Notes: generated by a model not told the origin, from the letters alone. Shown: positions 1 to 36,277, numbered from the stretch's first letter. The stretch: DNA of 64,000 bases from Candidatus Hermodarchaeota archaeon (GCA_048885865.1 JBHLLF010000012.1:16106-80105), one strand, 5' to 3'. Made by a program: numbers and translations.

Positions 1-3000
1 CATCTGTATTGCACGGTTTGTCGCAGTTCCAACGCCATGCATAGCGCCAATGAGATTCATTCCAACATCCGCCTTAGCCTTATCCTCGCTAGTTGTCAAA
101 TCTACATTAGTTGAGGTTCCCATTGCTAGATTCTCAATCATTGCATCAAGTGAACTGGGAAATGCCGAAACTATGCTTACTGAGTCAAACTCATTTGTTT
201 CACTCATCACCTCCCTGAGCTTGGCCGCAGCAACACTCCCTCTGACGACAACAATTAGTTCGATGAAATCATTACCTAGATTGCTCATGTAACTCCGAAT
301 TCTAGTCACCGTTACCTTCATTGATGATGCTTTGAGATGCTGAGGAAGTATCAAAATGGCCCTGTCGTCGAGAACGATATCTGGTCCATCATCTAGATTT
401 CGTTCCCATGTGACATCATACAAGCCAAGTTTCTCGATAATATAGTCAGTTATTACCATTCTTACTGCATCAAGTCCTCTTCCCGGCAAAGTAAAAATGA
501 AATCGCCTGGCACAATTGGCAAAGCTTCTCTCTCAATTGTCCCCAATGATACCAAGTCACGAATGACTTCGCCTATGTCATCACTTTCCATTCTTGAATC
601 GATTGCTGTCAGAATCTCCTCCATTTCAGCTTGAGTAGCCATATTTCGAGAGGCAAGAAATGCTACAATATGCGATCCCAATTCCCCCAAACGATCATAT
701 ACCGCTCCCATTGGTTTCGAAGAAGAGCCATTGCTGCCATATTGAACTGTTGTATCATGTTCCAGAGAGGCATCTTTGGGTTCTATAATTGCTCCTTCAT
801 CATGAGGTTTTGACTCAAAAGGCGATTTCTCAAGAATGCTGGTCATTTCAAATGGTTGCGTTGCAATCTCGAACGGTTCTGTCCCAGGCAAGACAATCAG
901 TGCTCTTCCACGCTTTAGTGTCTTAAGGTACCGTTCTTGTTCCTCATCAAGGGACATGAATCTGGCACCAATGGGACTATCATAGGGAAGTCGAAAAGCA
1001 ATTTTCGTAGCTGTGTTTGCCAGAATATTCGAAGACACATTCGGTCGAGTTGATATCACAACTACACCTTGCCCCGTTGCTCGTTGGAGCATAACCATAG
1101 ACTCTCCGGTGGTGACATCTGCAGCTGTATGTCTCGTATAGCTTTCAGGTACAAGATTACTGGCTTCTTCGAGAACCACTAGATGATGAAGACCTGGCTT
1201 TATCCCTCTGTGCAATGCGTAGTCAAAGATGCGTTTAGCTATGAGATTATACAGCAAACGAGCGGCATCCATTCCACCCGTCCTAGCAACATACTGCAGG
1301 TCAAGAATCACACGCTTATCCATAAGATTCGAAATCTTTACTGCATCTCGACCGCCACTTAGAATGGTCCCAAGTGGTTCTCTGGATAGAATCTCCAGAC
1401 GATTAAGGAGTGCATCTCTAGTCATGATAGCTGTCCGATCCTTTCCTGCAAGGTCTGATACCTCACGAATCAATGCTTGAATCGAGTTGTCATTATTTGA
1501 TGCACGCGCAATCTCTAGAACTGCCTCACGAAGAAGCTTTTCCATTGCAGGCGAGAGTTCTGAAGAAACACCTCTCTCGTTTAGGAGCTCTCTCAATATT
1601 GCAAAGGTTGTATATGCATGCTTTTCCCCAGAATCAGTTTCTGGATCCATGAAATCAATCACGAATGATGGATCTACTCCGGGTTTCAATACAAGGACAT
1701 CATTGTCACAGAGGTTTACTAATTCTTGATATTCAGATCCCTTTACATCAAAGATCCACCATGGAACACTCGACTTCTTACTTAGTTCAGCAATAAGGTG
1801 TTTCACCAGAGTAGTCTTTCCGGTACCAGTTGCTCCAAGTACAGCTACATGTTCCCGAAGCCATTCCGGTTTCAAACCGACATCATTTATTCGGCGCCCG
1901 CCAAAGACAGCTCTTGCAATGACAAACTCATTACTCACCAACTTTCTTGATGGAATTGAAAAGGTGGGCGCAGGGGATGCGGCAATGACAGGTAACTGCT
2001 GGACCGGTGTATTCAAGAAAGCTACCAATCTACTCACATGAGTCCTTTGTGACGCAATATGTCTTCTAAGAAGGAGTTTGTAGGCTACACCCTTCCCTAT
2101 GGTTTTAGGTTTCAATTTGACTTTGCTATCTCCTCCCCATATTGAGTGAACGACACCACACACCGCTTCTTGAATGCTTGAAAGCTGTTTGGAACTGTCT
2201 GTTCTTATCGCAAGAGAAACTGAGGAATCAAACCAGCTGGTATTTCCCTGTATCTCCTCATAATCGCGTAGCAGCTTCTTTTTCTCTGAATGGTCTGCCA
2301 GGGAGTCTTCGTTCCGTTTTTCTTTTTCACGAATTGTTTTCCATTGCCCTTCCAGTTTTCTCTGTTCACGCCCAGGTTTGGCCTTCGAAAAGACGCATGT
2401 GAGACTTACATCATATCCTTGCCTAAGCGAAGTTGAGAGGAAAGTCCCAATCTGCGAGCTTTCCAGACTGGGCGCGACTCGTGGCTCTCCATTAATTAGC
2501 AACAATGCAGTATGCAGCTCTCTGGATAAGTTCCCTTCCAAGTTAAGAGAAAGGATGCCTGATACGGCGTCCATGAGGCTCTTTCCTCTAAGCTGATGGA
2601 GTTCCACATTGCTAAGAGAGGATATCAATATGGCCTCGGCTCGAGTCGCCTCATGTCTAAGAATACTCCCAATCTCTTCCTCATTCTTGCCTATTCCAGT
2701 TATGAATATCCGTAGAAAGGCTTCGCCCCTCGAAACACCCGCTTCATATGCCATACTGACCTTCTCATTCATTCCTGCACGAAGTGCTAGAAGGAATGCA
2801 GTAGCATATTCTGGCCGATCATTCCGAGCAACATGGACCGAGCCAGGCGCAGATATGATATCAAGACAACATGTTGCCACAGTATGGTTTCCAACGTTCA
2901 TTGACACTAAATCATCATCTAAGACCGCAGTCAATGTTTGCTCAAAAGTTATCTTTCTGCGAGCCACTAGTACGCCCATTAATATCGGACCTATGGAGAT

Positions 3001-3165
3001 TATGATTTCAATGAACAGTTTCGATGGGATTGAAACTGGGGTGATCAGTCCTAGTAACGGGAGCAAATAGACTACTATGAAGTAGAAAGATGAGATAGCA
3101 ATGCCAGTAAGCCATCCGAGCTCAATCCATCTCCATAGTCCTGGAAGACTCTTCCTAGATGGCAT
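1..3165 (-). CDS. Membrane-anchored VirB4/HerA(DUF87)-like P-loop ATPase, partial (runs off window start, >1055 aa)
   Basis: Manual translation of large parts. ATG at 3165 follows a GAGGGAGG RBS. Begins MPSRKSLPGLWRWIELGWLTGIAISSFYFIVVYLLPLLG with two hydrophobic helices. Walker A REHVAVLGATGTGKTT (~1810-1857), Walker B HLVVLEEASN (~1160-1190), then VVISTRP..ILANTATKIAFRL. Absent from the ORF track, consistent with no stop codon inside the window. Confidence 0.88.
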   Translation of the reverse strand, partial: MPSRKSLPGLWRWIELGWLTGIAISSFYFIVVYLLPLLGLITPVSIPSKLFIEIIISIGPILMGVLVARRKITFEQTLTAVLDDDLVSMNVGNHTVATCCLDIISAPGSVHVARNDRPEYATAFLLALRAGMNEKVSMAYEAGVSRGEAFLRIFITGIGKNEEEIGSILRHEATRAEAILISSLSNVELHQLRGKSLMDAVSGILSLNLEGNLSRELHTALLLINGEPRVAPSLESSQIGTFLSTSLRQGYDVSLTCVFSKAKPGREQRKLEGQWKTIREKEKRNEDSLADHSEKKKLLRDYEEIQGNTSWFDSSVSLAIRTDSSKQLSSIQEAVCGVVHSIWGGDSKVKLKPKTIGKGVAYKLLLRRHIASQRTHVSRLVAFLNTPVQQLPVIAASPAPTFSIPSRKLVSNEFVIARAVFGGRRINDVGLKPEWLREHVAVLGATGTGKTTLVKHLIAELSKKSSVPWWIFDVKGSEYQELVNLCDNDVLVLKPGVDPSFVIDFMDPETDSGEKHAYTTFAILRELLNERGVSSELSPAMEKLLREAVLEIARASNNDNSIQALIREVSDLAGKDRTAIMTRDALLNRLEILSREPLGTILSGGRDAVKISNLMDKRVILDLQYVARTGGMDAARLLYNLIAKRIFDYALHRGIKPGLHHLVVLEEASNLVPESYTRHTAADVTTGESMVMLQRATGQGVVVISTRPNVSSNILANTATKIAFRLPYDSPIGARFMSLDEEQERYLKTLKRGRALIVLPGTEPFEIATQPFEMTSILEKSPFESKPHDEGAIIEPKDASLEHDTTVQYGSNGSSSKPMGAVYDRLGELGSHIVAFLASRNMATQAEMEEILTAIDSRMESDDIGEVIRDLVSLGTIEREALPIVPGDFIFTLPGRGLDAVRMVITDYIIEKLGLYDVTWERNLDDGPDIVLDDRAILILPQHLKASSMKVTVTRIRSYMSNLGNDFIELIVVVRGSVAAAKLREVMSETNEFDSVSIVSAFPSSLDAMIENLAMGTSTNVDLTTSEDKAKADVGMNLIGAMHGVGTATNRAIQM

Positions 3166-3424
3166 TCTAAATCGGCCTCCCTCGCTCAATTCATGACTGG
3201 ACACTGCGTCATCACCCGTCCGGAGTTAGAGCACTGTGAATGCCTCTTGCGAATCCACAGTCTACCCTTGGTGATTTACAATTACATATGAACTCCCCCA
3301 GAATCTGATAGTTCGGTAGGAGATTAAAAACTCGAATACAGACTCATGAGAGAATTCAGAACACGCTATGCATGAGGCTTTTGCATAGCTGCAATCTATT
3401 TCACAAGAAACGAGGTGACTGCAT

Positions 3425-5386
3425 TTGAAGCGAGTCTGCACAGGAATAGTAATGATATTGGCAGCACTGTTCTTAGTATCTAGTTTGACTGCAGATGTAG
3501 CATCGGCAGAGGAAACCCTTGTCGTAGTGCGCGGAGAATTGGTGCCTATCACTGCAAGACTCCTTCAGAACGGCACCTTCGGAGATCCAGTAATCAACCA
3601 GCGTCTTCTTTTCTACGATCAGACGCAAGATATCTTCATTGGATCTGCCTTTACAGACACCAATGGCTATGCAATAGTACCCTGGAATGTTTCGATCAAT
3701 CACCCTTTGGGACTGTGCATGTTAAATGTAACATTTGAGGGAAACACTTCGCTTTCTTTGTTTCCTTCCTGCCAATGGTCTTCAGTCATTGTGGTTTCTA
3801 CGACAGTTATAGAGGTTCAAGTCAAAGAGAACTCTATTCACCCAGAGGATGAAATTGTTCTTACTGCCAAAATCACTGATGATCATAATGCATCAATTAG
3901 TGGGGTCACTATGGCTGTTTATAGTGAAGGTGCCCTTCTAGCAGTTGCTCCAACGAATGCTAGCGGCTATGCAACTTTCATTATAGATTGCAATAACACA
4001 TGGTGTATCATTGGACAAAACACATTGAGAATAGTCTTCGAACAGGATATGGTACGCTTCCTAAACGGTTCACAGATTCCGATATCTGTAAACGTTCACC
4101 AAATAGCGACATCTATTGAAATAGAAGATTTCTACAACTCTACAGTTCATTTGAATGACTCATTCTGGTTGCAGATGACAGTTCTGGCTGAGGGTCAGAA
4201 CCACTCCGATGCACCACTTGTTGTGTTTCTTGATGAAAATCCAATAGATGCTATCGTGAGCGACATAGATGGTATTGCAGAGCTAAGTCTAGATATTGAT
4301 TCACGGTATATACTTGGGATGCACACCATTAAGATAGAATATTTGGGGACCTTCCGTTATGAATCGTCATACAAAGAACTTAACATATCCGTGATAAGCC
4401 CCGCAGCAATCTACATTGAATTGCCAGATTCAATCCCTGTAGGAGTAGAATCTGAAGTCCAAGTAACACTCCATGATCTCTTTATGAGACCGATTCACAA
4501 TGCCACTGTAACGCTATTTGATGAACGTACTCATGAGTTGCATTTGATATCATTCTCCTTTGGACAAATCACAGCTACTTCACGCATTGCCTTCAATGGC
4601 CCTCTTGGACCCAGAAATCTACAGTTCGAGGTTTCACATTCATTCTTGACAGATAAAACTAGAATAATCCCAGTTATAGTTTGGTCGCAGCCTTACATCA
4701 TCATGACCTATCAAAACATACGAGGCTATGCATCGCCTTCTCAAGTTGTGACGTTCCAAATTCAGCTAAATGCAAGTGGAATCAATATACCGGAACGACC
4801 AATTGCGTGGCAAATTGGAGACCACTTGGTGACTACGTCTATCACCAATAATGACGGTGTTGCAGAAGCCGCATTTCCCGTTTCTTCAGTAGAAGGTCCC
4901 TATCTATTAGTCATAAGCTATAATGGTAGCATACTAAACTACGAACTACCCGCAGTCTTAGAATATGAAATCATTGTCAGCAGAGTTGTTCCGGTAGCTG
5001 TGAATATGGTGAAGTATTCGGTTTATCCCTCTCTTCAAGAAATTGTAGTTCAATTATCCATCATAGCACTGAATGGCACCCCTCTAGAAGATGTAAATCT
5101 GTCCTATGAGTGGCTAGGCCAAAGAAGTCTTGCTAAGAGTCACGAGTCGGGCATTGTAGAGATTAGTCTTCGCATTCCCACGGAATCAGGTGTCTATAAC
5201 CTATATTATGAAACAGAGGAAGCCGCGTTCGCACAATCTTCCACTGGATACCACATCATTATCATCTCTAGCGCAGAAGCAATGGCTGGTCAAGGTGTAG
5301 GAATTCCCATCATCGTGCTCAGCCTTAGCGTATCAGTTGCACTTGCTAGCATACCGGTTCTATGGCGACGCCGTCTAATAGGATGA
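3425..5386 (+). CDS. Secreted, C-terminally anchored Ig-like (Big) repeat surface protein
   Basis: N-terminal signal peptide; repeated beta-rich units with T(D/N)xxGxA and Y/FxG motifs; C-terminal TM helix followed by WRRR. Confidence 0.75.
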   Translation: MKRVCTGIVMILAALFLVSSLTADVASAEETLVVVRGELVPITARLLQNGTFGDPVINQRLLFYDQTQDIFIGSAFTDTNGYAIVPWNVSINHPLGLCMLNVTFEGNTSLSLFPSCQWSSVIVVSTTVIEVQVKENSIHPEDEIVLTAKITDDHNASISGVTMAVYSEGALLAVAPTNASGYATFIIDCNNTWCIIGQNTLRIVFEQDMVRFLNGSQIPISVNVHQIATSIEIEDFYNSTVHLNDSFWLQMTVLAEGQNHSDAPLVVFLDENPIDAIVSDIDGIAELSLDIDSRYILGMHTIKIEYLGTFRYESSYKELNISVISPAAIYIELPDSIPVGVESEVQVTLHDLFMRPIHNATVTLFDERTHELHLISFSFGQITATSRIAFNGPLGPRNLQFEVSHSFLTDKTRIIPVIVWSQPYIIMTYQNIRGYASPSQVVTFQIQLNASGINIPERPIAWQIGDHLVTTSITNNDGVAEAAFPVSSVEGPYLLVISYNGSILNYELPAVLEYEIIVSRVVPVAVNMVKYSVYPSLQEIVVQLSIIALNGTPLEDVNLSYEWLGQRSLAKSHESGIVEISLRIPTESGVYNLYYETEEAAFAQSSTGYHIIIISSAEAMAGQGVGIPIIVLSLSVSVALASIPVLWRRRLIG

Positions 5387-5395
5387 TAATAGAAT

Positions 5396-5502
5396 TGGTG
5401 CTCCGGCCGGGATTTGAACCCGGGTCGAGGGATCGAGAGTCCCTCATGCTGGGCCGGACTACATACGGTTGCATCATGACTTCATGAAGCATCTACCGGA
5501 GC
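5396..5502 (-). tRNA. tRNA-Glu(CTC) with 29-nt intron at 10/11 (5464-5492), CCA encoded
   Basis: Reverse complement: GCTCCGGTAG[intron]TGTAGTCCGGCCCAGCATGAGGGACTCTCGATCCCT...GGGTTCAAATCCCGGCCGGAGCACCA. BHB central helix CGGT/ACCG with bulges AG|A and TA|T. Confidence 0.93.
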
Positions 5503-5602
5503 TAAGGCGCACCAGTCCGGAGCGGGTGTGCTCACTCCAGACTACAAATAAGGCTTTCCCCAAATCTTTCGCCAAATCACACAAGCAGCGTTAAATCATT
5601 AG

Positions 5603-5797
5603 TCATGGAAATAGACTCGTGAAGCTACTCCAGCTGTCCTCAAGAATCTGAAAGAGTCCTGCTACAACGTCTTGTGCCCAACCTGTTGCCTGCAGTATCA
5701 CAGCAATGACTATCGACACAGTAACCACGGCAATACCAAGCAGGAGACTCTCTTCAACGAGAGGGCCGCCCTTTTCATCCCTTATCGGGTCATGCAT
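5603..5797 (-). CDS. Flp/type IV-like pilin with class III signal peptide (64 aa)
   Basis: MHDPIRDEKG|GPLVEESLLLGIAVVTVSIVIAVIL: charged leader ending KG, Glu at +5, hydrophobic helix. CAGGTGG RBS before ATG 5797. Lies downstream of a TadA-like ATPase. Confidence 0.75.
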   Translation of the reverse strand: MHDPIRDEKGGPLVEESLLLGIAVVTVSIVIAVILQATGWAQDVVAGLFQILEDSWSSFTSLFP

Positions 5798-5866
5798 AGA
5801 ATTCCACCTGATTACCTGTCCATGGAATGGTATTTTAACTGCCCTCAAAAACGAAACAGGATGCCC

Positions 5867-7558
5867 TCAGATCCGTGCAAACCACAATGACTGCCCTTTA
5901 GTCCAAATCTCTTTTCCCAAGCTTCGGCTTCCACTATTGTCTGATGTTTGTAACCTTTCGGATAGAAGATTGACTATTTCGTTGTATGCTTGAATATGAC
6001 TTTCATGTCCAGCTGCACGTGCAAAGGAAAGATACGCGCCGTCTGTTGCCCAATGCAATTCTTGCGATGAATTGCAATTGTAGACTGTACTGAGTCCTAC
6101 GAACTTGAGTACTCCTTCTGAAACTGTTCTTTGGACTTCAGCAATCTCGCTGACGCGTCTAATCGACTCTCCAGGTACTGGTCGTACCATTGTCACAATC
6201 AAATCCATCATAGCTATACTAGATTTGTCGATATTGTGCCCAGTTGTCCAACGGGACACAAGACTAGCTGCAGAAGAGCTATGACAGGTTTGCATTGCAC
6301 GAAGACCTGCTGCAATAGCTTGGAAAAGTGCTTGGCTGTGCTCTGCAGTTTGGATCTCACCAAGCACAAGATAGTCTGGCGACCTATGGAGGGTTTTCAC
6401 AATCTCTAACGATTTGTCGAAATGCCCATCTACTTCATCAACGGGGTCGACTTTGAAACGAACTTGGTTGTGATCGTGAAGACTTCTGCTTTCTACTGCA
6501 TCTTCTATGTAGATTTTTCTCCAGGTTTTTGGGCTATCCAAGTCAAGTGCATTCAATAGAGTAGTCTTACCTGTCCCAGGACTTCCAGTTATCGTTATGT
6601 TAAACCTGCACCCCAGTGCCAAAAGAAGTGCTGCCGCCGCTTCAATTGGAAGTGTGCCATTGCGAATTAGGTCCAAAATGGTGAAAGCATTCCTCCGCGC
6701 CCGTCGAATTTCCATATGCAACCCATCAGGGCTTAATGGCGGCAGGCTGGCAGATACTCGCAGATTCGTATCAAAGAGATTCAAGTCAGTCTTCAAAGAA
6801 GGATTTCTCCTATCTAGATGGAGGTTACTCTCTGCACGTAGTAGTGTGGTTAGACGAGGGACATCTTCTTGCTGAAGCTCATGTTTTGAGATACATCTTC
6901 CTAACCTACAATGGTCAAAATAGATAGGCTTTCCTGGACGGTCCATGTACACTTCTTCCACGTCATCATCCAACAGAATTGGGAGGAATGGTTCTAGCAC
7001 AGTTGTTTTGTTTGCCACTATCATAGAGATTCTTTCTCGTGTCGTGCTGCCTATCTCAGGTAACGATGTCAGGAGGTTTCTACAAACATTGTCAGCAACC
7101 TGCCGAAGTCGAGTTGAAATATCAGACCTTCCTATTGACTGCCGGAGATTACTTCGAATTGATTCACTCAGTTTCTGCATGAGTCCATACTCGAGCGAAG
7201 TCCTCACTAGTGGATGCGAACGATGAAAAATCCCTCTTCTACCTGCTCTCGAGAAGTAGAACGAAAGATATGGACCTACCAAGTAAGCATCTACTGGAAT
7301 CCAATCACTGTCTGGAAACTCGTGATCACCTATATAGACTGACTCCCATCCATCTCCTTTCCAAGGAGGATTTGTTGAGATTGGACCAGAAATTCCACTC
7401 AGATGAATGAGCCTTCTAGAGTCCTCCAGAATCAGCACCCTCTTCCTATTCTCTTCTTCAAATACCATAGAGAGCCTAGTGCATTCTGAAGCCGTTCTCT
7501 CAGAACAATCCTTGCATCTTGTGTCCGGACATCTGATTAATTCGAGCGTATCTTCCAT
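5867..7558 (-). CDS. Type II/IV secretion ATPase (CpaF/TadA/VirB11 family)
   Basis: LLDDDVEEVY, Walker A GSPGTGKT, IED Asp-box, LHRSPDYLVLGEIQ, TCH His-box, RRVSEIAEV. Confidence 0.9.
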   Translation of the reverse strand: MEDTLELIRCPDTRCKDCSERTASECTRLSMVFEEENRKRVLILEDSRRLIHLSGISGPISTNPPWKGDGWESVYIGDHEFPDSDWIPVDAYLVGPYLSFYFSRAGRRGIFHRSHPLVRTSLEYGLMQKLSESIRSNLRQSIGRSDISTRLRQVADNVCRNLLTSLPEIGSTTRERISMIVANKTTVLEPFLPILLDDDVEEVYMDRPGKPIYFDHCRLGRCISKHELQQEDVPRLTTLLRAESNLHLDRRNPSLKTDLNLFDTNLRVSASLPPLSPDGLHMEIRRARRNAFTILDLIRNGTLPIEAAAALLLALGCRFNITITGSPGTGKTTLLNALDLDSPKTWRKIYIEDAVESRSLHDHNQVRFKVDPVDEVDGHFDKSLEIVKTLHRSPDYLVLGEIQTAEHSQALFQAIAAGLRAMQTCHSSSAASLVSRWTTGHNIDKSSIAMMDLIVTMVRPVPGESIRRVSEIAEVQRTVSEGVLKFVGLSTVYNCNSSQELHWATDGAYLSFARAAGHESHIQAYNEIVNLLSERLQTSDNSGSRSLGKEIWTKGQSLWFARI

Positions 7559-7608
7559 TCACATCCTCGCCTTTGGGAGTATAATTCAAATCGGTGTCAC
7601 ATGATTAT

Positions 7609-8646
7609 CTAGGTTAGAGAAACTGATGCAATCACTTTCTTCATCATTCCGAAATGGTCCCGAATGCTGTACTCAGCCACTTGAGTCGCTTCCGAGGCAA
7701 GCTTCTGAGTAAGCACAGACCGTTTTCCATGTTCATCTGCAACTAGACGATCGCTTGCGTAGGCGGCGGAAACAGTGAATATGAAGGGATTTCTTCCTCC
7801 TCTCTTTGAAGCCGGTATCATCTCTAGAACTTCAAGGATCTTATCTCTGAGAGCATTCTCATACTTCTTTGACTCCCATCCACGAGCTATCACCTTTTTG
7901 AGCACCTTTTCACTATTCATCAACATAGACAAGACTCTTGGCACATAGTCATCTGGACGTCGAATTTCAGGGGCAACACCTGTTAGTGATTTGAGTTTCA
8001 GTGCTTCTCTAACAATAGCCCTGACATTAACACGATGACCACATTTCTCGAATGTATTGGCTATCTCATCCAAGGTGATTGGTGCCCCATCCTTGAATTC
8101 TCTAACAGCCATTAGAAGACATACAGCTATGAGCAGGATATTGTTGTTAACCTTCTCCGAAGACTCAGAGGATATCTTCTTGTAGAGATAGGCAGTGCGA
8201 TCACGGACCTGTTCATTTAGCATTAGCAGCTTAGAAACATGGTTGAGAGTTCTGAGAGCTCTATACTTTGCTTCATTTCTGCCAATCCGTATTCGCGTGC
8301 TGTATATCATCTTAAGCCGCTTGAATTTCTTCTGCGATCGTGCTGTGAGAGTCTGACCTTGTGCATCTTGGAAATATCTGTCTTTATGGAAGCCAATATA
8401 GCTCCCTAAACCGTCAACAATATGCATACGATTTCCAAGAGATACGTATACACTTGCATCAGGTGCACCGTCAGATACCTTTTCACCCATCTGGTAGGTA
8501 GGTGACACGTATTCTCTAGAGATTACTAGACCGCATTCTACACATACAATATAGCCCTGGTTTGCCGTTATTAGACCGGAACAGTCGGGGCAAGACCAAG
8601 ACGAGTTTTGAATAGCCTTGAATGTTTCATCAATCAAAGACCACAC
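7609..8646 (-). CDS. Divergent transcription initiation factor IIB (TFB)-like protein
   Basis: N-terminal CPDC..CVECG zinc ribbon, two cyclin-like repeats, GRNP motif, C-terminal TQKxASE..VAEYSIR HTH. Confidence 0.8.
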   Translation of the reverse strand: MWSLIDETFKAIQNSSWSCPDCSGLITANQGYIVCVECGLVISREYVSPTYQMGEKVSDGAPDASVYVSLGNRMHIVDGLGSYIGFHKDRYFQDAQGQTLTARSQKKFKRLKMIYSTRIRIGRNEAKYRALRTLNHVSKLLMLNEQVRDRTAYLYKKISSESSEKVNNNILLIAVCLLMAVREFKDGAPITLDEIANTFEKCGHRVNVRAIVREALKLKSLTGVAPEIRRPDDYVPRVLSMLMNSEKVLKKVIARGWESKKYENALRDKILEVLEMIPASKRGGRNPFIFTVSAAYASDRLVADEHGKRSVLTQKLASEATQVAEYSIRDHFGMMKKVIASVSLT

Positions 8647-8826
8647 CCATATACCGCATGGGTTCGGGTCCTAACTAGATTTCAGGAGGGTTTCAGTCCG
8701 TTCTTCAGAACATGCTGTTCTACAGAGCTAATTCTCAGTGCTTTACAGAGGGTGTTAACAGTCTGGACTGACAGAAAGAGAGATGCCCGAAACTATTACA
8801 TGGAGTATGAACTCTCGAAGACATTT

Positions 8827-9192
8827 TCACATTATAGCTACCAAGAACCTGTTTTGGTCAAACGTCTTTCGTTGAGCAGCTGTAGGATTACTGAGATCAA
8901 GAGTCATTCTAAGCCCTCCTATCGTGCCAGTAACTTCAATCCCATTTTCGTCTCTTATTCGAAACACCTTGCCTTCCGCATACAGCTTGGCATTCTCTCC
9001 TCTTGCAATTGGTTTCGAATCGAAAATAACAGTGACCTCGTCCCTTAGCTTAATCGTACCAGACAGGACTTCAGGAAGCTCTAATGAAATCCGTGCACCT
9101 TCTTCTTTGGCAATCATCGTGACAACTTTCAGCCTCTTTGTTTCGGTGTCTTCAATTGAGTCAACTGTGGCATTCTTTAGCCTGATTACCAT
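8827..9192 (-). CDS. rpo8: RNA polymerase subunit Rpo8 (Rpb8/RpoG)
   Basis: 121-aa OB-fold pattern with GKVF and TIGGLRMTL, matching the Rpb8 SFGGLLM motif. Confidence 0.75.
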   Translation of the reverse strand: MVIRLKNATVDSIEDTETKRLKVVTMIAKEEGARISLELPEVLSGTIKLRDEVTVIFDSKPIARGENAKLYAEGKVFRIRDENGIEVTGTIGGLRMTLDLSNPTAAQRKTFDQNRFLVAIM

Positions 9193-9256
9193 ATTCTCAC
9201 GCTCCTCGGCGCTTGGTTGGCGGTCAGTCTGGAATTAAAGTTGTCGTTCTATTCGT

Positions 9257-11305
9257 GTGCTGTTTTTTAGGCAACATACTGACCGGGGTTTGGTGGGTTT
9301 CTTGAGCCAAAGGACATTAGCATCAGTCATTGCCTGCGCATGTATTGTATTCGCCCTTGTCGCACCTGTTTCTGCATTCTACTTCGAATTCCACTACTTC
9401 GAAACTGACAAGCTAGCGTATGAAGTAGGTGAAACAATAAACATGGTTGCTGAACTTATTGCTGATTTCAGTGGAGATGGGTGGTGCTATGTGTCGTTTG
9501 CAGTAGTGACCGATCAAGGTCCTGTATTCTCAGATCTCTATTATATCTCACCCTCAATTGACGTACGACACTTCAATTCATCCTACACCATCCTCCCAGG
9601 AGACACCTCACCAGGAGTAAATGGCACCCAAGCCTATGTAATCTTCAATGTCGAGATCTATGACTCCTATTCACAGGGCGAGGGAGATACTGTTGTTGTG
9701 AATATAACAAGGGGCCATCTTGGTGTTCTTCCGCTATCACCTTTGAACATTGAATTCAACAAAAATTCCACCCTTGCCTTTAAAGTTGCAAGTACACACA
9801 ACCAGTCCATTCCATACAGGAACAGCCCTGTGACAGTCACACTTCTCAATTCGACATCTGATTCAATACTAGAAATTGATACGACAACATCCTCGGACGG
9901 AGAAATATGGATTAACTGGACTGAAACCACAGGCCCTCCTGGTGATTATACAGTTACAATAGCAGGTAATGGAACGGAGAGCTTCCTTCCCTTTTCAGAT
10001 TCTTTCCCCCTCGTAGCAACAAGAGCGATTTCCAATCTAACAATCTTGTCTGCACCACCATCAATTCATTGCCAAACACCAGATGGCAGTCAAACCGAAT
10101 CCGCTGACATATTGGTAGATCAGAAGACGCAAGACGGTCAGCTGATTTCTGATAGTACGATTCTGTGGACTACGACCTTTTCTTCGGGTACAATGAACAA
10201 ACTTGGTAACGGACTCTACAGTGTGTCAATACCATTCACTGTCAAACCAGGCCTATATAGTGTGAATCTTACAGCAATCAACCCTCTTTATCGAAATGAA
10301 TCTGAATCGGTCACAATTGATGTGATTCCCTATGATGTTCATCTTTCAACAGCAAATGCTACGTGGTATGCCAAGCGAGGAAACAATGTTACCTTGATTG
10401 TAAGTATCAATTCCACCTTACTGCAGAGCCAGCTAATTCCAATAGAAATCTTTGATTCAATTGGAGAAATCAATGTCACTGTATCAGTCATTGCTAACAG
10501 TCAAGCGGAAGTTACACTCTCTATCAGCAGCGATACATCACTAGGTTCTCATTCAATGTCCATTGAAATACTCGAAAGTGCGTACAGCGTTCAGAATCTC
10601 CTTGACCTGAAAATCAATGTTCATGGAGTCATCGATGTTGATGTCGTGTTCAACTTAGTCTATTATGGGGAGATTACTCAGGTCGATATCAATGCTACAG
10701 ATGATAATGGCCAGAGTGTTGGGTTCATTGATTTGAGAATCTATGCTGATTCAGCCCTTACACCCTTTTTCACAATTAGCAATGCAGATGCCACGTCCCC
10801 AATAGAAGTTCCCTTTTTGTTCGATATCTATCCTGGATCACACACTCTTCATTTGTACATAAGCAGTCCTTGGTGTGAAGAAGCAAATATCTCAGAATCC
10901 ATGACCGTCTGGATGAGAACTAGCATTGTGATAATCATTGGGGACTCCACTTCTCCTGGACCTATATCTCCCTCTCCTACAGACTATGACTCGGATCTTA
11001 TTCTCTCCACGATTTCATTCGGCTCAATCAGCAATCCTCCACCAATCTTAGTGAGTGAAACCACGTCGATAGAGTTGCCAACTGCTCTTGAAACCTCTCT
11101 GGAGAGCTGTCCTAGACTAAGCTCCGGCACTAGCAATCGATCAACTGATTCAGCAAATTCTCTTATCTCAGAGTCTGGAAACGGCCATGCAGTTCTCAAA
11201 CGCAACGATCTCAGAGGAGGGACTCCTGAACTCCTAGCAATCAACTCTTCTACCGATCTTGATGTGCACCCATACGATATAATTCCCCATTCAGCTGACT
11301 CTTGA
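9257..11305 (+). CDS. Secreted Ig-like repeat surface protein; 3' end overlaps korA antisense
   Basis: Signal peptide (..VFALVAPVSAF), beta-rich repeats, many NxS/T sequons. True start probably ~9302. Confidence 0.7.
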   Translation: MLFFRQHTDRGLVGFLSQRTLASVIACACIVFALVAPVSAFYFEFHYFETDKLAYEVGETINMVAELIADFSGDGWCYVSFAVVTDQGPVFSDLYYISPSIDVRHFNSSYTILPGDTSPGVNGTQAYVIFNVEIYDSYSQGEGDTVVVNITRGHLGVLPLSPLNIEFNKNSTLAFKVASTHNQSIPYRNSPVTVTLLNSTSDSILEIDTTTSSDGEIWINWTETTGPPGDYTVTIAGNGTESFLPFSDSFPLVATRAISNLTILSAPPSIHCQTPDGSQTESADILVDQKTQDGQLISDSTILWTTTFSSGTMNKLGNGLYSVSIPFTVKPGLYSVNLTAINPLYRNESESVTIDVIPYDVHLSTANATWYAKRGNNVTLIVSINSTLLQSQLIPIEIFDSIGEINVTVSVIANSQAEVTLSISSDTSLGSHSMSIEILESAYSVQNLLDLKINVHGVIDVDVVFNLVYYGEITQVDINATDDNGQSVGFIDLRIYADSALTPFFTISNADATSPIEVPFLFDIYPGSHTLHLYISSPWCEEANISESMTVWMRTSIVIIIGDSTSPGPISPSPTDYDSDLILSTISFGSISNPPPILVSETTSIELPTALETSLESCPRLSSGTSNRSTDSANSLISESGNGHAVLKRNDLRGGTPELLAINSSTDLDVHPYDIIPHSADS

Positions 11306-34762: not shown

Positions 34763-36277
34763 TTGTCTGAAATATCATCATTCACACCAATTGGTACCGT
34801 CATCTGCGAGCAAGACTCACCCAACGTCATGGAGTTTTCTTTCGTTGTTGAAGGGGAAGCTCATGAGCTGGTAGTAAGACGGGGCGAGTTCGTTTCAATA
34901 GCAAACGACGATCAGACAGTCATTGCTAGAGTACAAGACCTAGTGAGAGTCAACCGATATTACCAGCATGCCGAGGCCGTAAGAGAATACCAATCTAGAG
35001 GAGAGCCGCTCCGCTCAATCTTTCCTACTGACCGCTGGCAATATACTATTGCTAGAGCCCAAGTCCTTGGTCTGTGGTCCGAAAACAGGTCAGTCCGTCC
35101 ATACTTCGCCGTATCTCCAGGAGCACGAGTAAGCAAGGCAGACAGCGAAGTGCTGGCTGCTTTTCTGAATCTTGATGACACGGATGGACTCAACTTAGGT
35201 ACTCTGGCTCATCACACTCTGGAGTTCAAACCATCTATCAACCGGCTCCTTTCAAAACATCTTGCCATATTAGCCATGAGTGGTGCGGGGAAGTCCTACT
35301 TTGTTTCCGTCCTTCTTGAAGAGCTTTTAGCACGCACAAAGAAACAAGGTAGGCTGGCTGTGATTGTTGTCGACGTGCATGGAGAATACACCTACCTACA
35401 GGGCCTCACAAATGACGTATTGGGTGAGCCAGACCTCGAAATCGATATAGAGCATATTCGAGGGTCACACATCCAAATTCCAGTACAATCCCTGGCTGCT
35501 GAAGCCATAGGGTCTCTTGTTGCTGACATGAGTGCCATTCAAGTTCGTGATCTAAGGCGTGTAGTTTCTATAATGCGAAAGGACGCAAAGAATGGCTATA
35601 CACTTGGTGATATCATTGACTATGTCAGGACTGATGAAACCATCAGTAAGAACACAAGAGAGGCTCTTGTAGGATGGCTTGTTAATCTAGAAGAAACCGG
35701 ATTATTCGGCAAGGAAGGTATTCCGAATCTTAAGAGCATCATTAAACCTGGGAAGCTGACCCTCATTGACTTGAGTGACTTCATCAGTTTAAAGAAGAAG
35801 CAAATCGTCGTGTCACATTTAGTGAGCGAGCTCATGTTTCTGAGGCGCCGAGGTTCAATTCCTCCATTTCTTTTGGTCTTGGAAGAAGCCCACCAGTTTT
35901 GTCCGGAGAGCCGGCATGAGCTTGCCCTTCCTAAGAGTCGAATCGAAACTATAGCACGGGAAGGACGCAAGTTCTTCGCATTACTCTGTTTGGTTTCACA
36001 AAGACCCGTGAAACTCTCGACGACCGTGTTGAGTCAGTGCAGCAATCAAGCAATCCTCAGAGCAACGAATCCATATGACCTCGAACATATTGGGCGTAGT
36101 AGTGAAGGCATCGACCGAGCGTCATTAGACACCATAACCACACTCGAAGTAGGAGAGGCTCTTTTTGTTGGGGAAACAGTTTCGGTTCCTACTTTTGTTA
36201 AGATTCGAAGGAGGCACTTTGAGCCATCTGGGCTCACCCAAGGTCTATCTGAGGCGCTGAAAAAGGCTGACAAATAG
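34763..36277 (+). CDS. herA: HerA helicase (HAS-barrel plus ATPase)
   Basis: HLAILAMSGAGKS, DVHGEY, LEEAHQF, AREGRKF, SQRP. Confidence 0.92.
   Translation: MSEISSFTPIGTVICEQDSPNVMEFSFVVEGEAHELVVRRGEFVSIANDDQTVIARVQDLVRVNRYYQHAEAVREYQSRGEPLRSIFPTDRWQYTIARAQVLGLWSENRSVRPYFAVSPGARVSKADSEVLAAFLNLDDTDGLNLGTLAHHTLEFKPSINRLLSKHLAILAMSGAGKSYFVSVLLEELLARTKKQGRLAVIVVDVHGEYTYLQGLTNDVLGEPDLEIDIEHIRGSHIQIPVQSLAAEAIGSLVADMSAIQVRDLRRVVSIMRKDAKNGYTLGDIIDYVRTDETISKNTREALVGWLVNLEETGLFGKEGIPNLKSIIKPGKLTLIDLSDFISLKKKQIVVSHLVSELMFLRRRGSIPPFLLVLEEAHQFCPESRHELALPKSRIETIAREGRKFFALLCLVSQRPVKLSTTVLSQCSNQAILRATNPYDLEHIGRSSEGIDRASLDTITTLEVGEALFVGETVSVPTFVKIRRRHFEPSGLTQGLSEALKKADK

Follow-up and report, generated by a model that had tools for sequence, protein, structure and literature searches.

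The 64,000-nucleotide stretch analysed here, referred to as the window (G000:C12:16106-80105, within a 3.58-Mb assembly that is 87% complete), comes from an Asgard archaeon deposited as Candidatus Hermodarchaeota, and the close homologues of its proteins are labelled Candidatus Thorarchaeota in NCBI. At the left end of this window, two conserved chromosomal gene sets lie side by side. They are read as a reduced type IV filament operon and a membrane ATPase set, and a probability of roughly 0.55 is assigned to this reading. The first set runs from right to left on the minus strand, with an Rpb8/RpoG-like gene, a divergent TFB paralogue, a TadA/CpaF-family ATPase and a 64-amino-acid protein, after which a tRNA gene is found; the second holds a large membrane ATPase and an immunoglobulin (Ig)-repeat protein. 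A preliminary description of the first 8,646 nucleotides had combined these genes into one contact-dependent DNA exchange or uptake system analogous to Ups plus Ced. The six features it named (TFB-like gene, pilus ATPase, pilin, tRNA-Glu, Ig-repeat gene and membrane ATPase) were all found where it had placed them, and its account of their arrangement is correct: the pilus ATPase, the 64-amino-acid pilin and then the membrane ATPase follow one another on the minus strand, the start of the membrane ATPase being 2.4 kb from the pilin stop, with the Ig-repeat gene divergent from it. Orthologues of the gene set are kept across 76 Thorarchaeota species, and the genes of the locus are therefore not chance open reading frames (ORFs). 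The locus is chromosomal, vertically inherited and not a mobile element.

The probable filament set and its candidate prepilin

It is quite likely that the first set builds a pilus, and the candidate subunit is the 64-amino-acid protein (window 5603-5797, minus strand), a putative Flp/Epd-like, helix-only prepilin with a single transmembrane helix. In the alignment of its orthologues, the first 10-13 residues are variable and are followed by an almost invariant [G/A]|[G/S]PLVEE motif with a glutamate at +5; beyond the motif come one transmembrane or hydrophobic helix and a conserved amphipathic tail. Identity among orthologues amounts to 67-98%, as against 41-94% for the pilus ATPase. According to the pilin profile, 106 of the 121 Asgard-phylum genomes sampled carry one copy or two, and a search of genome contigs with the pilin profile returned Thorarchaeota only. 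The gene is preceded by a BRE (TFB-recognition element)/TATA-like promoter, GAGGGCAGTTAAAATACC (5829-5847, minus strand), about 40 nucleotides upstream of the ATG and followed by a GGTGG ribosome-binding site; in a footprint of 76 species, this promoter is kept as GGGGCnTTAAAAkA across the Thorarchaeota loci.

The pilus ATPase (5867-7558, minus strand, 563 amino acids) belongs to the TadA/CpaF/VirB11 family of secretion ATPases. It matches Pfam T2SSE with 68.5 bits against a cut-off of 24.9 and is the sole gene of that family above the cut-off in the genome. Through a sequence search of the PDB, GspE of A. fulgidus (5e-26), CpaF (6e-18) and FlaI were retrieved as top matches, VirB11 being far weaker. 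The N-terminus is rich in cysteine and family-specific, and the protein was found in 39 of 41 related genomes. As a separate observation, this gene is interrupted close to its 3' end by a single in-frame TAG or TGA stop in three congeneric species (G015:C21, G008:C1 and G013:C236).

Located 50 bp upstream of the pilus ATPase on the same strand, an arrangement shared by 66 of 68 Thorarchaeota loci, is the divergent TFB/TFIIB paralogue (7609-8646, 345 amino acids; Pfam TFIIB 26.3 bits plus a zinc ribbon, NCBIfam TFIIB E=3e-15). Within the set it shows the highest conservation, and it adjoins the ATPase gene in at least seven Asgard families. The family to which it belongs comprises 196 clusters at E<=1e-30, including members labelled Odin-, Heimdall-, Hodarchaeales and Nitrososphaerota. 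Elsewhere in the genome there are seven canonical TFB genes with two strong TFIIB repeats each, together with a 119-amino-acid ORF bearing a single repeat. The gene row is headed by the RpoG/Rpb8-like gene (8827-9192, minus strand, 121 amino acids), which has its own TATA box and matches Pfam RNA_pol_RpbG at E=0.0019 and 18.7 bits, under the 27-bit cut-off; its positional counterpart in family f3 (the Asgard families sampled are numbered, f1 being the Thorarchaeota) reaches 33.9 bits, above the cut-off, and its pairwise similarity to the window gene is weak.

The preliminary description had stated that neither a T2SSF platform nor an A24 prepilin peptidase is encoded within the window, which is the case. 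Its suggestion that TadC/ArlJ, CedA-like or PibD genes might be found to the left of the window led to no such platform or peptidase: the 16 kb there contain an amino-acid kinase, rpS10, GlmS, an 85-amino-acid ORF and other housekeeping genes, with no platform, peptidase or integrase. Both missing parts are nonetheless present in the genome as single copies. The platform gene is on contig C25 (508 amino acids, T2SSF 33.9 bits against a cut-off of 25.2) and corresponds to a TadB and TadC fusion, its halves matching the two platform proteins that other families encode as separate genes. This fused gene is conserved in the Thorarchaeota yet unlinked: it is always on another contig, and in a closed genome 650 kb separate it from the locus. 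The peptidase is encoded on contig C35 (179 amino acids, Peptidase_A24 30.7 bits against a cut-off of 26.5). Contig C25 carries, in addition, two tandem genes at 8511-9728 (L015) for proteins of 184 and 210 amino acids, each combining an N-terminal Mrr_cat or inactive restriction-endonuclease-like domain with an Rpb5 C-terminal domain.

Comparison with the rest of the phylum upholds the earlier view of the ATPase and the small protein as parts of a pilus, with the ATPase-pilin pair being linked in most of the Asgard families sampled. Complete operons, with TFB-like, T2SSE, T2SSF, T2SSF-like and pilin genes, were found in families f3, f12, f4 and f6, and shortened ones in f8, f13 and f1. Another family includes a closed genome of 1.4 Mb in which the order is Rpb8, TFB-like, ParA/MinD, a 116-amino-acid protein, T2SSE, T2SSF, a 244-amino-acid protein and pilin, and the core of TFB-like gene, T2SSE, one or two T2SSF-type genes and pilin is seen in four families besides that one. 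According to the proposed mechanism, the A24 peptidase would cut the prepilin before GPLVEE; the pilus ATPase would dock on the fused TadB-TadC platform and polymerise the pilin into a thin, helix-only pilus; and the TFB paralogue would probably direct or tune transcription of the set.

A 16-nucleotide element, CTGAAATCTAGTTAGG (8670-8685, minus strand), ends 24 nucleotides upstream of the start codon of the TFB-like gene, and no ordinary TATA box is obvious at the site. Its consensus, CTGAAAyyyAGTTAGG, is kept in 57 Thorarchaeota loci, always upstream of the TFB-like gene only. The GAAAy core fits the Sulfolobus damage-response hexamer in some species only, and the hexamer is too short for any claim to be built on it. 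On the other side of the Rpb8-like gene, and divergent from it, lies a gene for a secreted protein (9257-11305, plus strand, 682 amino acids) with a signal peptide and a weak MG2 match; its ORF overlaps a 2-oxoacid oxidoreductase gene on the opposite strand by about 320 bp, and its N-terminal half alone is conserved in the Thorarchaeota.

The membrane ATPase and its neighbours

The large ATPase (window 1-3204, minus strand, covering the first 1068 of 1258 amino acids; full gene C12:15533-19309) has about an even chance of being a surface or transfer motor. It is composed of two N-terminal transmembrane helices, a VirB4-like N-domain, a DUF87 P-loop ATPase (Pfam, 53 bits) and a winged-helix tail. 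Among NCBIfam models the best match is CedD, with 44 bits against a cut-off of 600; VirB4_CagE scores 27 bits against 643. A profile search of the PDB placed HerA on top (E=3e-13), and a single-sequence PDB search gave nothing useful. The structure of residues 85-800 was predicted with AlphaFold2, with a mean confidence (pLDDT) of 83.6, and a Foldseek search of this model returned VirB4/TrwK first (E=9e-21, over about 800 columns), followed by HerA (1e-14) and TrwB (1e-10). The label of a membrane VirB4/HerA-like ATPase given in the preliminary description is thus upheld, the predicted fold being nearest to VirB4/TrwK. VirB4/TrwK and the large ATPase are 10-13% identical, with a TM-score of 0.34 over the whole chain; because this score is low, the resemblance is taken as likeness at the level of the fold and not as membership of the family. 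The 460-amino-acid tail was modelled as two winged-helix and small alpha/beta modules (pLDDT 75), with weak matches to Cdn1/Can2, replication terminator protein, RPC62, YaeQ and FokI, and the model hints at nucleic-acid binding.

The Ig-repeat gene (3425-5386, plus strand) encodes a predicted type-I membrane surface protein of 653 amino acids, with a Sec-type signal and a C-terminal transmembrane segment at 625-643. The matches to Big_1 (32.5 bits) and Big_3_5 (31 bits) are both slightly under the Pfam cut-offs, and the protein is fast-evolving, its orthologues being 26-92% identical in the Thorarchaeota. Throughout the Thorarchaeota the gene is divergent from that of the large ATPase, and a sister family, represented by genome G025, has a 23%-identical homologue in the same divergent position. 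An Ig-like neighbour of the large ATPase is retained in f1 and f2, and in f12 a secreted protein of 560 amino acids adjoins the ATPase homologue. The divergent region between the two genes (3205-3424) has its own conserved BRE/TATA-like element on each side, kept across the Thorarchaeota as GGGGGwGTTCwTATG on the ATPase side and as TTTTAATCTCCTA on the Ig-repeat side.

To the left of the window, the 85-amino-acid ORF yields, from its methionine, a protein of 82 amino acids (C12:12070-12318) with a two-transmembrane hairpin and a basic loop. Judged by its sequence, this protein may be VirB2-like. Members of its family are encoded directly upstream of the large-ATPase homologue in f15, 3.3 kb from it in the Thorarchaeota and 5 kb from it in f12; no PDB profile match was obtained for the family. 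Two paralogues occur in the same genome (C9:49861-50091, L098, and C76:1389-1589, L097), one of them 71% identical and one forming the C-terminus of a 172-amino-acid membrane protein, and most relatives have several. There is also a second DUF87/HerA gene in the window, at about 35192-35830 (C12:51297-51935), whose 504-amino-acid product gives the strongest DUF87 match of the genome (101 bits). As to mechanism, the large ATPase might act as a Ced/Ted-like membrane translocation motor, resembling those of domesticated type IV secretion systems (T4SS).

Relation to described systems

The combination of genes in the filament set is not without precedent. In 2016, Makarova, Koonin and Albers described a clade 4D in Pyrobaculum and Thermoproteus, in which an ATPase of the VirB11 family is encoded in one predicted operon with a TadC-like membrane protein, a divergent TFIIB homologue and RPB8 (PMC4858521). 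This subsystem was presented as pilin-less, specific to the Thermoproteales and perhaps related to transcription (PMC4858521). In a census published in PLoS Genetics in 2026, 4D was regarded as a likely remnant and the filament genes of Asgard archaea as scattered; 4D components were listed in 17 Asgard genomes and judged "unlikely to act together" (PMC13705601). By its gene combination, the filament set of the window is probably a member or close relative of 4D: the Rpb8-like, TFB-like and ATPase genes stand in a row here, and other Asgard families add the platform genes. In contrast to the published subsystem, the Asgard operon closes with a conserved putative prepilin of the Flp kind. This gene at the operon end and the wide spread in the Asgard phylum are additions to the published picture. 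The statement in the preliminary description that no such system had been described for Asgard archaea was therefore half right, with the combination of TFIIB, Rpb8, ATPase and platform having been in print since 2016 as the Thermoproteales clade.

Like the bacterial Tad/Flp (type IVc) pili and the Epd pilus of Methanococcus, the set combines an ATPase of the CpaF/TadA type with two platform proteins of the TadB/TadC type, a short putative pilin, helix-only and bearing glutamate at +5, and an A24 peptidase; a ParA/MinD gene, comparable to TadZ, is present in one Asgard family. It differs from both in that the pilin has no Pfam Flp match, that its motif reads [G/A]|[G/S]PLVEE instead of G|xxxxEY, that a TFB paralogue heads the Asgard operon and that, in the Thorarchaeota, the platform genes are fused and encoded elsewhere, as is the peptidase.

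For the second set, the closest comparison is with the chromosomal, domesticated T4SS-like DNA transfer systems, namely Ced (CedA, A1, A2, B, D, E), which operates with Ups in the Sulfolobales, and Ted (TedA, B, C) of the Thermoproteales. The layout of CedD, a transmembrane part followed by an N-domain and an ATPase (PMC11868833), recurs in the chromosomal, membrane-anchored HerA/VirB4-like ATPase of the window, and the nearby two-transmembrane hairpin protein may resemble CedA1/TedC. As with Ced and Ups, the biology would also involve type IV pilus genes and a specialised TFB. The locus departs from Ced and Ted in its low CedD score, in having no CedA/VirB6-like channel nearby and in the long winged-helix tail; it departs from Ups in that the predicted pilus is Flp-like. 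The VirB4 protein TrwK of conjugative T4SS gives the best structural match across the N-terminal and ATPase domains; unlike in conjugative systems, sequence profiles lead to the HerA clade and no VirB3, VirB6, VirB8 or relaxase genes are present. The HerA of HerA-NurA systems is soluble, possesses a HAS-barrel and is encoded beside NurA/Mre11/Rad50, whereas the protein described here has two transmembrane helices, an N-domain that aligns with VirB4, and surface-protein and housekeeping genes as neighbours.

One system or two modules

Within the Thorarchaeota, the two sets adjoin in 62 of the 66 species with enough flanking sequence, and clustering survives rearrangements in G019, L106 and L146. 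Beyond this group, several links were found. In family f16, a HerA-like paralogue, a gene for a 109-amino-acid two-transmembrane protein and a pilin paralogue are found in a 2.2-kb stretch, some 8 kb from a T2SSE gene; in f12 the pilus operon is 13 kb from the large-ATPase homologue. Family f20 has a protein of about 150 amino acids in which a Flp-like prepilin N-terminus is fused to the 82-amino-acid family (hhalign 97.3% and 94.5%), encoded on the plus strand at L085:6405-6854, L086:2930-3382 and L087:5544-5999; the fusion occurs in nine sequence clusters and hence is no product of misassembly. A Nitrososphaeria-like metagenome contig from the Joint Genome Institute (Ga0129301_1000061; L179:7983-16034), the single locus of this kind that was read, has on one strand genes for T2SSE, T2SSF, a 214-amino-acid protein, an 87-amino-acid Flp-like pilin and a 582-amino-acid HerA-like protein, with a gap of 36 bp before the last, a TFB-like gene upstream and, on the opposite strand, four small ORFs resembling pilin genes. 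The HerA-like protein of this contig has DUF87, TrwB, TraG and AAA_10 matches and is 87% identical to a Nitrososphaeria-labelled protein; among the six DUF87 paralogues of the genome studied here, the large ATPase is nearest to it by blastp and phmmer, and tblastn missed it.

Several results weigh against the reading of the locus as a filament operon beside a transfer-type ATPase set, or against any tie between the two. The rpS10, amino-acid kinase and 2-oxoacid oxidoreductase flanks are equally syntenic within the Thorarchaeota; adjacency of the sets inside that group proves little, because the housekeeping flanks are as syntenic as the candidate genes. Moreover, cdc6 tends to occur in the neighbourhood, and old origin-proximal synteny could therefore explain part of the linkage. 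Outside the Thorarchaeota, most genomes carry the two ATPase genes on separate contigs or at a distance of 50-270 kb from each other. Family f3 has a complete pilus operon with no HerA-like gene (0 of 4 genomes) and no homologue of the 82-amino-acid protein; the HerA-like gene is missing from 12 of 17 f12 genomes; and G025 has the large ATPase, its Ig-like neighbour, the 82-amino-acid protein and the platform gene, while the pilin was not detected and no clear T2SSE orthologue was found. With regard to the individual proteins, the pilin matches no Pfam model, the CedD score of the large ATPase is far under the family cut-off, and its sequence falls in the HerA clade, with no VirB4 match at E<=1 in the PDB profile search. 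The 82-amino-acid family matches TrbC/VirB2 only at E=0.049, for one family member, and the language-model neighbours of the protein, T4SS_pilin and TrbC, have scores of 0.85-0.86. No ORF with five or more predicted transmembrane helices, as expected of a CedA/VirB6-like protein, is present in C12:1-34000, the rest of the genome not having been searched. In the window, the two sets are separate transcription units with their own promoters. The 16-nucleotide element upstream of the TFB-like gene was considered as a regulatory motif common to both sets and was rejected, as it occurs once in the genome; the promoters of the two sets have no motif in common.

Weighed against these results, it is unlikely that the TFB, pilus ATPase, pilin, Ig adhesin and VirB4-like pump are the parts of a single, obligate machine for exchanging or taking up DNA on cell contact, comparable to Ups plus Ced. 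Such a machine would agree with the fixed gene order in the Thorarchaeota and its persistence after rearrangement, with the Nitrososphaeria row, which unites all core parts on one strand with short gaps, and with the f16 adjacency, the pilin fusion, the VirB4-like fold and the winged-helix tail; in the Sulfolobales, Ups, Ced and TFB3 do act together (PMC11868833). The modules, however, are unlinked in most Asgard families and occur singly in f3, in G025 and in most of f12; the large ATPase stands outside the pilus operon, with the tRNA gene and an opposite-strand gene between them, and no CedA-like channel is encoded in C12:1-34000. The synteny and co-occurrence comparison that the preliminary description had proposed for its single machine thus gave a mixed outcome, in which the linkage in the Thorarchaeota and three links elsewhere speak for the idea, and the absence of linkage in most other families and the separate occurrence of the sets speak against it. 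The same lack of linkage, the presence of the large ATPase in G025, the equally conserved housekeeping flanks and the HerA proteins among the top sequence matches, some of which are defence-associated, would also suit an ATPase unrelated to the pilus, that is, a membrane motor of the HerA clade that serves in DNA repair, defence or the handling of chromosomes and is held in place by inherited synteny. This explanation is rather improbable, given the two N-terminal transmembrane helices and an N-domain that is VirB4-like and not a HAS-barrel, the secreted or Ig-repeat neighbour that recurs in three families, the two-transmembrane small protein directly upstream in f15, the repeated association with pilus genes, in f16 and in Nitrososphaeria, and the separate gene elsewhere on the contig that is the genome's best DUF87 match.

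A filament function itself would be lost if the ATPase, platform, TFB and Rpb8 set were a remnant put to another use, related to transcription or otherwise unconnected with filaments, and the 64-amino-acid protein were a small membrane protein and not a pilin. This is the published interpretation of 4D (PMC4858521, PMC13705601) and in that respect counts against the view taken here; it draws further on the tight association of the TFB paralogue and the Rpb8-like gene with the ATPase across the phylum, the scattering of core genes in the Thorarchaeota and the absence of a Pfam pilin match. It is nevertheless quite improbable, in that the small protein shows every element of a prepilin signature, glutamate at +5 included, is strongly constrained and ends a TadA-TadB-TadC row in several families, that it went undetected in the single genome lacking a clear T2SSE orthologue, although the platform gene is kept there, and that the A24 peptidase is retained in the genome. 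The tRNA gene, finally, calls to mind an integrated conjugative or viral element. It is a tRNA-Glu(CUC) at about 5396-5502 on the minus strand, with an insert in its 5' half (Rfam tRNA match at 5399-5472, 35.6 bits where the gathering score is 29); ARAGORN makes no call on the native gene and calls tRNA-Glu(CUC) once about 30-40 nucleotides of the 5' part are removed in silico, and standard tRNA finders miss it because the insert is in the 5' half, outside the anticodon loop. A tRNA gene amid a cluster with two secretion-type ATPases is what an integrated element might leave, but such an origin is extremely improbable and was rejected: the order and the housekeeping flanks recur in the 76 Thorarchaeota species, every gene is single-copy and tracks species divergence, GC content is even (0.41-0.47), and there is no integrase among the neighbours and no tRNA-derived, att-like direct repeat nearby.

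The reading preferred here remains that of a filament operon and an ATPase set side by side. The two are separable modules, and that they cooperate in some lineages is a tentative view, held at somewhat less than even odds; in the cooperating lineages, the pilus would give contact and the ATPase would give transfer. That the cargo would be DNA is rather doubtful, and it is likewise rather unlikely that Asgard and TACK archaea (Thaum-, Aig-, Cren- and Korarchaeota) share an ancient chromosomal apparatus for contact and DNA movement, made of a TFB-run Flp-like pilus machine, a VirB4-like membrane ATPase and a small VirB2-like protein. Were it true, the closest archaeal relatives of eukaryotes would own a dedicated system for the exchange of chromosomal DNA, and the pilin-less "remnant" subsystem 4D would be a working pilus.

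The latest census portrays Asgard archaea as poor in type IV filaments, with genes of doubtful function (PMC13705601). A compact, phylum-wide operon with a previously unlisted Flp-like pilin offers a concrete candidate for such a filament and, at the same time, a candidate pilin for subsystem 4D. The dedicated TFB at the head of an operon for a putative surface structure provides a simple, testable case of regulation specific to a TFB paralogue. In the same way, the recurrent tie to a membrane ATPase with a predicted VirB4 fold makes contact and DNA exchange testable in relatives of the eukaryotic ancestor.

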